Source: a bacterium (GTDB taxonomy: Bacteria > Patescibacteriota > Minisyncoccia > Phycocordibacterales > Phycocordibacteraceae). Taken from it: 64,000 nt of DNA. The stretch spans positions 433,992 through 497,991 of the forward strand of contig JBBCGK010000001.1 of assembly GCA_037200965.1 (NCBI GenBank), in the 5' to 3' direction. The notes below the pieces were generated by a model. That model was not told the DNA's origin. It searched no databases and saw nothing but the letters and a program-made list of their open reading frames with translations. Positions 15,263-18,405 of this stretch are shown here, piece by piece (the first letter of the stretch is position 1; each line of letters opens with the position of its first letter). A program made the position numbers and the translations under genes.

Positions 15263-15945
15263 GTTCTCACGCATTACTGCGTGCATCGGACTGTAACTTC
15301 ATCGGTTCTCGATGTTCAACGTTCAGTCTCTACGGGCGATATACCTCCGTATCCGCTTCTTGGAGTAGTTCAGTTCTCCGAAAGCGTTTACGAGTTCGAG
15401 CAATTTCTTGAATGCTGCCTGATTCTGTTCGCGCTTCTTGCAGTCCAGGACCTTCTTCAGGAGAGCGATCTGTTTCTTCTTCAACCGAACGAAAGGTTCG
15501 ACGAGTCGGATCATCTCTTCTAAGTCGTCAAGACGCTGCACCGTGTACTCGCACACGCCATCCTTGCGTTCCCGAAGGGAACCGAACGGCATAAGCGTAC
15601 ACATCTTCTCGAAAGAATCCTTCGACTTGGCGGACTGGAAGAACACTATCGCTGGTGCAATCTGGTATCCGAACCGATAGGTTGAATTAGGTTTTGCACG
15701 AACGTAGATGCTTCCATCCCCATCGAGGAATCCTGCGAGATAAGCCCTGTCAGTGTCAGATAGGCGAATTTGCTTCATATCTTCCCTCGGTATTATCCTA
15801 CCATATGACAGGTTAGGACTTCACCGATATAAGTTGAATTGTCGTACTGCATTCCTGCAATACGCCGCCGTGATCATGTCTTCTGCCTCGGGGCTCAGAC
15901 CGTTCAGTGGCCGATGCTTTCATCTAGCCGCTGAACGGTCTGAAC
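15263..15945 (-). mobile_element. Intron in 23S at the L2593-equivalent site (I-CreI site)
   Basis: The exon block ...gatagggaccaacctgtctcacg is followed by non-rRNA sequence. The exon resumes at acgtaacattttaa... (~15950). Confidence 0.75.
15323..15778 (-). CDS. LAGLIDADG homing endonuclease, single-motif (I-CreI-like, 151 aa)
   Basis: [11 protein letters not shown] motif; size and insertion site match the I-CreI family. Confidence 0.85.
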
Positions 15946-16262
15946 CCAACTCACGTAACATTTTAATTGGCGAACAGCCAAACGCTTGGGACCTTCTCCA
16001 GCCCCGCGCTATGTTGAGTCGACATCGAGGTGCCGAACTCCGCCGTCGCTATGGACGCTTGGGCGGAACTAGCCTGTTATCCCCAGAGTAACTTTTATCC
16101 GTTGAGCTCTGGCCGCATCTAAGGCGTACCATCGGATCACTATGCTCTGCTTTCGCATCTGCTCGGGATGTACCCCTTGCAGTTAAGCTCTCTTATGCCA
16201 TTACACTATCGGCACGGTTTCCATTCGCGCCTAGAGAACCTTAATAGACTCCTCCGTTACTT

Positions 16263-16548
16263 TTTAGGCGTGTGGTACTCAATCGCTTGAGCGCGCGATC
16301 ACGGAATCGCACCTCTATGTCGCCATAGAGATCGGACTATATCTTCATCACCTTGCGGTGAGATCGGCGTGTAGTCTCTGAGGGTTCTCTTACGAGTCTT
16401 CCCTGCTGATTGTCCGCACCGGACGGATTTTCACTCTTTCGAGTACCGCCGGATACCCGGATGTTCCAGCATTTGGCCGATTTGCTTGTACCGGTTGCCC
16501 GGCACAGTCCCCCTTTTTTATATTTATCGGTTTTCGGATGATGGTCGA
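16263..16548 (-). mobile_element. ORF-less intron in 23S at the L2449-equivalent site
   Basis: ~290-nt insertion between exon blocks ...ctcctccgttactttttagg and gaggatagcgccccaccaaaactgcc. Carries the atcggactatatcttcatcacc...ggcgtgtagtctctgagggt core shared with the 16S intron. Confidence 0.65.
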
Positions 16549-16912
16549 ACGGGCGCCGCTTTCGAGGATAGCGCCCCACCAAAACTGCCTACCACGCACG
16601 GTCCCGAGGAGGATCCCTCCTCGGTTAGGAACTGCACAATTCAAGAGTGGTATTTCACTGACGAGTCCACGGGAGCCGAAACCCCCGCTTCAACCTCTCC
16701 CACCTATGCTACGCAGGAATCACGCAGCCCCAATACGAAGCTGCAGTAAAGCTTCTGGGGTCTTTTCGTCTAACTACAGGTAACCGGCATCTTCACCGGT
16801 AATGCATTTTCACCGAGCGAGTCCTCGAGACAGTTCCCCAGTCATTACGCCATTCGTGCACGTCGGAATTTACCCGACAAGGAATTGCGCTCTTCTATTC
16901 CTCTACGAAGGA

Positions 16913-17860
16913 CCATTTCTTCACCCCCGAAGGGGTGCGCGGCGTATGGCCTCTCTTGTGAGCCGCGGATCTGCTATGCGTTGCCGCATAACGAGGTAGC
17001 TTGTCATGACGTAATCTTTCGAACTGTTTACGGTCTCCTACAATCGTCCCAATCCGTTCCGCGCTCGATCGCTCGAACGCGGAACCTTAGGCATATCTCC
17101 TTCCTGTCGCCAGGAGGTTGGACTTTATCATCTCGCGTCTCAAGCGAGTCCGACGTAAAGTCTCTGAGGATTCATGTGTTCAATTACTAATCCGGGAGCG
17201 TCGCGAGCATCTCTTGTAGAGCGTGCTTGCGGCCCTTTCCTTGTTGATTCATCGAGTATGCGAGTGTTGCTATCCTCACAAACCCTTCCTTCGTCCAGTG
17301 CTCCCGCTTCTCCATTGCCGCGACGATCTCCTTGAAGATCACGAATGTCTCGGCTTTGACGAGAAGCGGGTATCGCTCGAAGAACGGTATAACCCGCTCG
17401 ACGATTGAACGTCTCGAATCGATGCTGAAGTTGAGGACGGGATGAGTTCCGGATTTTCGATATATCGACCCTGTCCCGAAGGTTTCCTTCATGAGTTCAA
17501 GCACCTCGCGGTGCTTCTCATGCTGGTATACCTGGAAACAAGGATTGATCATCCATCCGAACTTTTGGGTCGGATGCTTGATGATCGATACCGAGAAGCT
17601 TCCCTCTCCGTCCACGAATCCTGCTACATAGTAGTTGCGCTGATGTCGCTTGCCACGGAAGTAGCTCATGACATCAGCCGAGTTATTCAGTCTCATGGCT
17701 AAGTTTGTTAGTTGTGAGACGAACACATGTCTTTCCTGCTGATTGACTGCACCGCGCGCATTGTTACCTGCTCGGTAGCGGCGGATACACCAGTTATTCC
17801 AGCATTTGGTCGGATTTTATAATCGCCCGACTTTTGACCTACTTGCGCAGGTTTGTAGGG
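16913..17860 (-). mobile_element. Intron in 23S at the L1917-equivalent site
   Basis: The exon block ...cccgacaaggaattgcgct...ggacc is interrupted. The exon resumes at gattatagttatcgccgacattcacc (~17863). Confidence 0.75.
17187..17726 (-). CDS. LAGLIDADG homing endonuclease (179 aa), intron-encoded
   Basis: VAGFVDGEGSF motif. Confidence 0.85.
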   Translation of the reverse strand: MFVSQLTNLAMRLNNSADVMSYFRGKRHQRNYYVAGFVDGEGSFSVSIIKHPTQKFGWMINPCFQVYQHEKHREVLELMKETFGTGSIYRKSGTHPVLNFSIDSRRSIVERVIPFFERYPLLVKAETFVIFKEIVAAMEKREHWTKEGFVRIATLAYSMNQQGKGRKHALQEMLATLPD

Positions 17861-18059
17861 TCCACGATTATAGTTATCGCCGACATTCACCAGGGCATAT
17901 ACAGCCCAGCACTATATCCGAAGACATAGCACCCTCCGTACTTAACCTTCTGGCATCGGTCAGGCGTCACCCCCTATACATCCTCTTACGAGTTCGCAGG
18001 GAGCTGTGTTTTTGGTAAACAGTTGCCAGGGAATCTTTCGCTGCGGCCCGCGCACCACT

Positions 18060-18405
18060 TTAGCCTCAACTCTTTTGGAAGGAGCGGAAACTAAAGTACT
18101 CGACGATCAAGACATGTTGTGAATCCGGATATCCGTTCCGATCTTCGTGGAATTATCCACAAAGAAAAGTCGGGGGCGTCTCCGTTCTACAACGTCATCC
18201 ATCAGCTGGCCCAGGTCTTCCGGGCCGCAGATGTATTTCTGATCATCGTTCACGAACTCTAACGTGCACTCGGAAGCACTCGGATAACGATACTTGAACG
18301 ACCTCAACTCTCTGGTCGTGAGCATCGTATACAGTACTTCGAGGTCAAGTTTTGTTCTTTGCTGCGTCATTTTGCTCTCCATATGTTGAGGACAAAGTGG
18401 TGCGC
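18060..18405 (-). mobile_element. Possible additional 23S insertion (intron or expansion) at E. coli ~1700
   Basis: ~345 nt with no rRNA similarity, between ...ctgcggcccgcgcacc and its complement ggtgcgcgggcaggccttatcgctaacttacgg. Confidence 0.45.
18107..18382 (-). CDS. Hypothetical intron-borne ORF (92 aa from MESKM...), not LAGLIDADG
   Basis: Same strand as the rRNA and fills the insertion; no recognisable motif. Confidence 0.3.
   Translation of the reverse strand: MESKMTQQRTKLDLEVLYTMLTTRELRSFKYRYPSASECTLEFVNDDQKYICGPEDLGQLMDDVVERRRPRLFFVDNSTKIGTDIRIHNMS

Follow-up and report, generated by a model that had tools for sequence, protein, structure and literature searches.

What interrupts a 23S ribosomal RNA (rRNA) gene that spans positions 14965 to 20235 of the minus strand and has exons totalling ~2.95 kb, and did the interrupting elements arise from one another? 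The gene lies in a 64-kb stretch of DNA, hereafter the window, which is assigned to a Paceibacteria metagenome-assembled genome (MAG) of the Candidate Phyla Radiation (CPR, or Patescibacteria), and five insertions interrupt it. A preliminary description, which began at 15263 and thus stopped short of the gene's end at 14965, had counted three to four introns, placed at L1917, L2449, L2593 and possibly ~L1700, and had regarded them, together with an intron in the 16S gene, as one family that had spread between rRNA genes. The breaks in collinearity it described are real, both against Escherichia coli and against the Rfam model of bacterial large-subunit (LSU) rRNA; its count is not, since there are five insertions and four of them are read here as group I introns, and three of its four 23S site assignments are wrong. 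We consider it very probable that the two rRNA genes are interrupted by five group I introns, all at universally conserved sites, namely S516 in the 16S gene and L1923, L1931, L2262 and L2593 in the 23S gene, that three of these hold LAGLIDADG genes in the loop of P6, and that the remaining 23S insert, in helix 63, is not an intron.

Placement of the insertions

The insertions were located by BLAST against one E. coli 23S gene, and their boundaries were set by intron-less relatives. Ahead of H69 this E. coli copy has one nucleotide more than the standard, and its BLAST coordinates therefore run one above the standard numbering; this offset was verified on H69, the P loop, position 2593 and positions 515-530 of the 16S. 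A global alignment to E. coli with low gap penalties came out scattered and was unusable for junctions. By BLAST, the 23S gene exceeds that of E. coli by ~106 nt between 228 and 293, by 320 nt between 1705 and 1771, by 964 nt between 1920 and 1933, by 296 nt at 2264 and by 674 nt at 2594, and the 16S gene has one place of insertion, between 453 and 517. A 30-nt string of 23S exon sequence recovers 93 loci in species-representative genomes, nearly all of them Patescibacteria/CPR MAGs (Paceibacteria, Kaiser-, Sung-, Ryan-, Vogel-, Taylor- and Giovannonibacteria, and Saccharibacteria), and among these related loci the spliced 23S exons of the window are 84-86% identical to the genes of Sungbacteria, Kaiserbacteria and Paceibacterota. 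All five introns have a U at position -1 and a G as their last nucleotide, and their excision restores exactly the sequence of intron-less relatives.

The excess of 964 nt falls in H69-H71, where a single intron had been proposed at L1917. Intron-less relatives read GGCGATAACTATAATCGT-CCTAAGGT-AGCGCAATTCC in this region; the 5' flank in the window matches them through ...AAUCGU (U1923, position 17864), and the 3' flank restarts at AGCGCAAUUCC (A1932, position 16891). The octamer CCUAAGGU, missing from both flanks, is found inside the 969-nt insertion, which must therefore comprise two introns, L1923 (17092-17863, minus strand, 772 nt) and L1931 (16892-17083, minus strand, 192 nt), on either side of an 8-nt exon at 17084-17091 (minus strand; E. 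coli 1924-1931), where relatives read AATCGT CCTAAGGT AGCGCAATTCC without a break. This mini-exon is preceded by ...GGAGAUAUG (...AUAUG|) and followed by the start of a new structured intron, that of L1931. Further support for two introns comes from H69 itself, the 3' strand of which, UCGU, compensates the variant 5' strand GGCGA and is the same in intron-less relatives. A single intron in place of the 969-nt insertion, whether at L1917, at L1923 or at L1931, would call for an anomalous 11-13 nt inserted in the exon, and it is ruled out by those relatives and by the presence of the octamer within the insertion.

The ORF-less intron (lacking an open reading frame) that had been assigned to L2449 lies instead at L2262 (16269-16564, minus strand, 296 nt). 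Intron-less relatives read TGGGGCGCTATCCT-CCTAAAAAGTAACGGAGG there, which puts the intron after U2262, and the region of 2449 is collinear in the window, at ~16040-16083. An alternative 5' splice site at U2257, with exon GGGCGCU pairing to GGCGCCC, was rejected, as it would block mature H81 and as the relatives fix the junction. The L2593 insertion (15260-15934, minus strand, 675 nt) lies exactly where it had been placed, with the junction AGACCGU|...AACAUG|CGUGAGACAG; intron-less relatives carry GGGTTCAGACCGTCGTGAGACAG, which the intron splits as GGGTTCAGACCGT CGTGAGACAG. In the 16S gene, the junction CUAACUCUGU|...CACGAUG|GCCAGCAGGAGCGGUAAUAC sets the S516 intron (699-1633, minus strand, 935 nt) after U516. 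The predicted ligated junctions are AAUCGU-CCUAAGGU-AGCGCAAUUCC, CUAUCCU-CCUAAAAAG, AGACCGU-CGUGAGACAG and ACUCUGU-GCCAGCAGG.

Given that rRNA regions of MAGs are prone to misassembly, and that the contig of a related MAG breaks inside its 23S gene (locus L005, which ends near window position 16118), one might suppose that foreign introns had been stitched into these genes as an artefact or chimera. The locus, however, lies inside a 960-kb contig, the window being the exact reverse complement of part of contig JBBCBH010010897.1 of assembly GCA_037975565.1. Moreover, the L2593 intron and its flanks recur in a second independent assembly, the exons are continuous and self-consistent once the introns are removed, and the same architecture is common in relatives. 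We accordingly give the idea of a chimera next to no credence and treat the insertions as belonging to the genome.

Group I cores and homing endonuclease genes

The case for group I introns begins with the catalytic core. The R element AGAGRCYNNAYGYYG occurs five times without mismatch in the 64 kb, once per intron and each time on the minus strand; S elements follow it at the expected distance in four introns, and L1931 has the variant GAAGAAAUGGUCC. The Q element AATCAGCAGGRAAG is present three times (1442-1455, 16398-16411 and 17731-17744) against 0.04 occurrences expected by chance, and P and Q are found in S516, L1923 and L2262 and are divergent in L2593. We take the strings shared among the introns to be P, Q, R and S elements from established knowledge of the family. 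The motifs quoted in the preliminary description are all present where it put them, as reverse complements since the genes are on the minus strand, and they lie in introns and not in exons. A further S-like string, AATGATAAAGTCCGA at 58371-58385 of the plus strand, is a chance match inside the ORF of a 351-aa protein, with no R element seen nearby.

The Rfam group I model RF00028, whose gathering score is 50 bits, aligns L2262 from P2 through P9 at 67.6 bits (16313-16529), the only intron to exceed that score. Below it, the model matches the 3' halves of S516 (26.5 bits, E 2e-4) and L1923 (14 bits), scores that are low because ORFs split the cores of these two introns. Rfam's group II intron families give no match, whether at the gathering score across the window or at E<=1-10 within the rRNA regions.

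Each intron also offers a guide for its 5' exon. In L1923 (P 17797-17809, R 17151-17165, S 17118-17132, with Q as above), the guide GCGAUUAUA at 17818-17826 pairs with exon UAUAAUCGU in a P1 of 9 bp that has G.U at the splice site, and the GG adjoining the guide pairs with the CC that opens the mini-exon, as P10. L2262 (P 16464-16476, R 16365-16379, S 16332-16346) has the guide AGGGGGA at 16508-16514, ~50 nt into the intron, which is conserved in four other CPR introns at the same site and forms a P1 with G.U, supported by a compensatory change in one relative (locus L068, exon C at -4 with a guide G). S516 (R 786-800, S 749-763) has the guide GCAGG and a P1 of 4-5 bp, again with G.U at the splice site. 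In L2593 (R 15317-15331, S 15286-15300, with P UAUAUCGGUGAAG and Q UAAUACCGAGGGAAG just upstream of its ORF), the guide ACGGUCUGA covaries with exon position -8, UCAGAC/GUCUGA alternating with UUAGAC/GUCUAA among 24 introns at this site. The splice-site U of this family, in the window and 23 further loci, faces A (or C) and not G.

Three of the introns, S516, L1923 and L2593, hold an ORF between Q and R, that is, in P6, with LAGLIDADG motifs such as LVGLMLGDG and AVWFMDDG visible in the translations, and homology identifies all three products as LAGLIDADG homing endonucleases. That two of the 23S introns encode such enzymes had been proposed before and holds. The L1923 ORF (17187-17726, minus strand; 179 aa if read from GTG, 169 aa if read from the ATG at 17696) is a single-motif LAGLIDADG_1 protein (Pfam PF00961, 76 bits), which among structures in the PDB matches half-domains of the I-OnuI family (E 6.5e-44) and I-CeuI (E 6.7e-19); an exact look-up of the 179-aa form from GTG gave no match, because the gene is called from the ATG. 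L1923 is also the site of I-CeuI, and the L1923 protein matches both I-CeuI and single halves of I-OnuI-type enzymes; it is single-domain, and the I-OnuI enzymes are double-domain. The L1931 insertion site falls within the ~20-bp target expected for the L1923 endonuclease, so that the presence of either intron should affect the homing of the other.

The L2593 ORF (15323-15778, minus strand) encodes the 151-aa single-motif protein that had been described as I-CreI-like and located at the I-CreI site, and it indeed lies inside the L2593 insertion. The protein (Pfam PF00961, 44 bits) belongs with the I-CreI/I-MsoI family, with PDB matches to the tandem two-copy I-MsoI chain 3fd2 (6.5e-34), native I-MsoI (3.4e-16) and I-CreI (3.6e-16), and it occurs in identical form in two independent assemblies. 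In size (~150-170 aa in the I-CreI subfamily), single motif, L2593 site and homology to I-CreI and I-MsoI it agrees with that subfamily, and its dimer state is predicted. The intron thus resembles that of the Chlamydomonas reinhardtii chloroplast LSU gene, which encodes I-CreI, and those of I-MsoI and I-CvuI, in its position after U2593, its ~150-aa LAGLIDADG protein of the homodimer type, its ORF in P6 and its sequence homology; it differs in having a bacterial host and a distantly related protein, the cleavage specificity of which is likewise a prediction. The stop codon of this ORF (15323-15325) falls in the R element, in P7.

The S516 ORF (740-1423, minus strand; 227 aa from ATG) encodes a double-motif LAGLIDADG_2 protein (Pfam PF03161, 113.6 bits over residues 10-175) that matches I-SceI (E 3e-16 against the PDB); it is homologous to I-SceI, the natural site of which is in mitochondrial LSU rRNA and not at S516. 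Its reading frame runs on without a stop through R, P8 and S (740-830), the LAGLIDADG_2 domain ending ~50 residues earlier. Overlap of ORF and core has likewise been noted in cyanobacterial introns (PMC1995217). Candidate intron-less targets of the 151-, 169- and 227-aa proteins are GGGTTCAGACCGTCGTGAGACAGGTTGG, GATAACTATAATCGTCCTAAGGTAGCGCAATTCC and CTCCTAACTCTGTGCCAGCAGGAGCGGTAATAC.

In the mechanism that we propose, each intron would fold into a group I core (P1-P10) and would be removed from the precursor rRNA by two guanosine-initiated transesterifications followed by ligation of the exons. The endonucleases would cut intron-less alleles at the same rRNA site, leading to site-specific homing, which would explain why the nearest relatives of these introns sit at the same sites in other genomes. 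L1931 and L2262, both without an ORF, may be endonuclease-less derivatives of the kind common in such lineages. The sequences themselves show the insertion boundaries, the core elements, the P1 pairings, the covariation, the endonuclease families and the relatives at the same sites; that the introns splice, that the enzymes cut and what becomes of the helix 63 insert we infer from the DNA.

Several observations weigh against so uniform a reading. The gathering score of RF00028 is reached by one of the five introns, and L2593 and L1931 go unmatched by the model even at E<=10; the splice-site U of these same two faces A and not the canonical G; and the 5' half of L1931 departs from the canonical order of a group I intron. 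The argument for splicing is built on the location in essential rRNA cores and on features of the sequence, for the one set of rRNA genes that the window covers. In a recent survey (PMC11270868), the same model placed only 45% of CPR 23S insertions in group I.

It could be held, then, that the insertions at conserved sites are expansion segments or intervening sequences (IVSs), either retained or cut out without ligation. CPR rRNAs carry many non-intron insertions (PMC11270868), and four of the five introns score below the Rfam threshold. The sites, however, are in functional cores (H69-H71, beside the P loop in H80/H81, near 2593 and in the 530 loop), where 190-935 extra nucleotides or a break in the chain would be implausible; all five insertions combine R and S elements, the U at -1, the terminal G and exon-complementary guides with covariation; and three carry the homing endonuclease genes typical of mobile group I introns. 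Retention or unligated excision at these five sites is thus extremely improbable, and group I introns remain by far the better account.

The L1931 mini-introns and the helix 63 extension

The 192-nt L1931 intron deserves separate treatment, as its architecture is atypical. Its R element lies at 16940-16954, with the S-like variant already given, and its guide GCUACCUC at 16993-17000. It belongs to a family that the CPR loci examined contain in 27 ORF-less copies, 187-237 nt long and all at this site, together with ORF-bearing versions (as in locus L088), and by BLAST the family is found only at L1931; across the related loci, ORF-less insertions of ~190-235 nt at L1931 and insertions at L2593 are very common. 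RF00028 matched no family member, either in a scan of six loci or at E<=10 on a 216-nt stretch.

Covariation within the family strongly supports a P3-like helix, in which each of the six pairs shows compensatory changes, together with P8, a terminal P9 into which the last nucleotides of the intron are paired, and an upstream helix A (GGAYU/ARUCC), and it backs P7 as well. An all-pairs covariation scan yields many spurious short stems besides, an effect of the division of the family into two main clades. Only 9-11 nt separate P7 from the 5' strand of the P3-like helix upstream of it, a gap that the endonuclease ORF occupies in locus L088, and this apparently leaves no P4-P6 domain in the canonical position. 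An invariant GYUACCUU, ~85 nt into the mini-intron and within the helix A domain, is exactly complementary to the junction AAGGU|AGC formed on ligation, and a segment UrGr, adjoining helix A, covaries with exon position 1924 (C-G in 12, U-A in 12, U-G in 2). The two lie ~50 nt apart, both in the upstream helix A domain. GYUACCUU matches the canonical guide GCUGCCUUAG of an ordinary L1931 intron in locus L024, an ORF-less group I intron of 212 nt that carries its guide at the normal 5' position and so contrasts with the mini-intron family.

Attempts to restore the canonical order of a group I intron, taking hairpin hp1 as P2 or P3, helix A as P3 or P7 and the element X as P6, gave no arrangement that fits. 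A tentative reading, possible and yet rather doubtful, is that the family consists of domain-rearranged group I ribozymes, without P4-P6 in the usual place and with a split guide and a U-A pair at the splice site. Alternatively, the alignment may miss something.

The remaining 23S insertion had been offered as a possible intron near L1700. It is a 365-nt extension of helix 63 (18045-18409, minus strand), ~320 nt longer than in E. coli, in which the hallmarks of an intron were not found. Its size, the long perfect stem that bounds it and the presence of an ORF annotated by a gene caller might suggest that the 23S gene has a fifth intron here, or a mobile element with a gene for an 87-aa protein. 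The stem (16 bp, GCCCGCGCACCACUUU/AAAGUGGUGCGCGGGC), however, aligns with the helix 63 stem of the Rfam model and is thus helix 63 itself, and this helix is variable, with extensions of 83 to 275 nt and of unrelated sequence in relatives. No R or S elements are matched in the insert, no Rfam intron model of group I or group II matches at E<=1, and the minimum-free-energy (MFE) fold of the 365 nt is one long hairpin. The 87-aa ORF within it (18107-18370), an orphan that the public assembly lists as a gene, is without a match in Pfam, in NCBIfam and by tblastn in the loci, and among 5.8 billion proteins it finds only itself; given this lack of homologues, it is probably not a real gene. An intron or mobile element in helix 63 is, on this evidence, very unlikely.

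The insert is instead a lineage-variable extension that would either stay in the mature rRNA or be excised, as an RNase III-type IVS, with its flanks left unligated. In being a long, stem-closed extension of a variable helix it resembles the expansion segments and the intervening sequences of bacterial 23S rRNA (Salmonella, Leptospira, Coxiella); it differs from classical intervening sequences, found in helices 9, 25 and 45, in its location in helix 63 and in having no ORF of the 23S_rRNA_IVP type. The ~106 nt of extra sequence in the 5' domain of the 23S gene (~19845-20014, against E. coli 228-293) are also non-intron, and many CPR relatives have a near-equal excess, of +102 to +108 nt, in the same region.

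Same-site lineages, setting and significance

Did one intron spread between the rRNA genes of this genome? The idea that the 16S intron, the ORF-less 23S intron and the intron once placed at L1917 are recent copies of one another draws on exact shared matches, of 21, 17 and 14 nt between S516 and L2262 and of 26 and 13 nt between L1923 and L2262, and on P, Q, R and S versions that are more alike among these three than those of L2593 and L1931. The likeness, however, ends at the ~90 nt of the catalytic core, at 73% over 92 nt (51 bits) between S516 and L2262 and 77% over 90 nt (62 bits) between L1923 and L2262, and the strings shared are the P/Q/R/S consensus of group I introns.

The ranking by BLAST already points to grouping by site. 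A metagenome scan with the S516 endonuclease recovers 24 loci, 22 of which have flanking ribozyme segments at 73-88% over 90-220 nt, scoring up to 153 bits (against 51 to L2262), and wherever the exon flank is on the contig the junction is the same (CUAACUCUGU| or |GCCAGCAG). The L2262 intron is 74-80% identical to the L2262 intron of locus L044 (103 and 72 bits, against 62 to L1923); the L1931 intron is 78-81% identical over its full length to those of loci L036, L023 and L011; the L2593 intron matches those of loci L028 and L008, ORF included; and the nearest relative of the L1923 intron is the same-site intron of locus L021. Further, the core of S516 is matched equally well or better by introns at L2500 and L1917 in other genomes than by its genomic neighbours, and the endonuclease families differ, LAGLIDADG_2 in S516 and LAGLIDADG_1 in L1923. 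As every intron has its longer and stronger matches at the same site elsewhere, the comparison gives no evidence of recent spread between rRNA genes, and the pattern is that of site-specific homing lineages, so that a recent dispersal within the genome is very unlikely. The closer versions of P, Q, R and S make it probable that S516, L1923 and L2262 belong to a single structural subclass and descend from a distant common ancestor.

The occurrence of such introns in this phylum is itself well documented. Tsurumaki et al. (2024, PMC11270868) found insertions in 82% of the 23S and 48% of the 16S genes of the CPR. Their group I introns cluster in the 3' half of the 23S, with LAGLIDADG_1 genes at 1917, 1931, 1952, 2593, 2604 and 2657 and with ORF-less counterparts at these sites, and the Rfam model leaves many short insertions unclassified. 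The locus described here agrees with the survey in host phylum, in multiple insertions per gene, in having its 23S group I introns in the 3' half of the gene, in LAGLIDADG_1 at sites of the 1931/2593 type and LAGLIDADG_2 in the 16S, in ORF-less versions at the same sites and in short non-intron insertions in variable helices. It differs in two sites, L1923 and L2262, that the survey's main text does not list, and the 192-nt form at L1931 would escape its Rfam-based classifier. Introns at L1917, L1931 and L2593 are also known from cyanobacteria and Thermotoga (PMC1995217), and these share with the window the L1931 and L2593 sites, the close spacing in H69-H71, ORFs that start in P6 and run into P7/P3/P8, and single-motif endonucleases. 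Their L1931 introns, though, are 654-700 nt long, carry an endonuclease gene and are IC1-like without P2, whereas that of the window is 192 nt, ORF-less and differently organised at its 5' end; the exon between neighbouring introns is 14 nt in Synechococcus C9 (PMC1995217) as against the 8 nt between L1923 and L1931 here.

Insertions in the related loci L006-L098 were also seen at L1917, L2262, L2449 (locus L039), L2500, ~2533 and L2657 and in helices 45 (~1165-1187) and 63, and one locus (L025) has nine. The first description of CPR rRNA insertion sequences and group I introns was reportedly that of Brown and colleagues in 2015.

In the window, the 16S gene (1-2093, minus strand, its 3' part beyond the window edge) is matched by Rfam RF00177 in two pieces, 1-837 and 1571-2093, and the 5S gene (14762-14869, minus strand; Rfam RF00001, 73.8 bits) lies downstream of the 23S. 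The 16S gene and the 23S-5S unit (14762-20235) are on the same strand, ~12.7 kb apart and with protein-coding ORFs between them, so that the rRNA operon is unlinked; ARAGORN finds no tRNA genes across the 64-kb window. The 530 loop of the 16S (676-698) reads GCCAGCAGGAGCGGUAA where E. coli has GCCAGCAGCCGCGGUAA, a mismatch to universal primers of the 515F type, and this variant is shared with ~18 metagenome relatives of the S516 intron (among loci L099-L118). The 23S gene is matched by Rfam RF02541 with 1902 bits over 15891-20235, where the run on the whole window stops; its real 3' domain, at 14965-15259, sits past an insertion of 679 nt and came from a run on a sub-range. This domain lies past the L2593 intron, and automatic annotation would truncate or mis-end the gene.

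Overall, the locus is a further instance of a documented CPR phenomenon, ordinary save for the L1931 mini-intron, and its significance is limited to that of one well-resolved example of the known CPR rRNA introns. The corrected map nevertheless gives exact sequences of ligated junctions that can be checked in metatranscriptomes, and it illustrates how merging two introns hides an 8-nt exon and how automatic rRNA annotation truncates a 23S gene. It also shows that motif sharing among the introns of one genome should not be taken for spread within that genome without a comparison of introns at the same site. The L1931 family, being unclassified by Rfam, abundant in the CPR and apparently non-canonical, may repay experiment. 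The Azoarcus intron is ~205 nt long; should the L1931 introns prove capable of self-splicing, few natural ribozymes of the group I type would be smaller, and the family would show a new connectivity.

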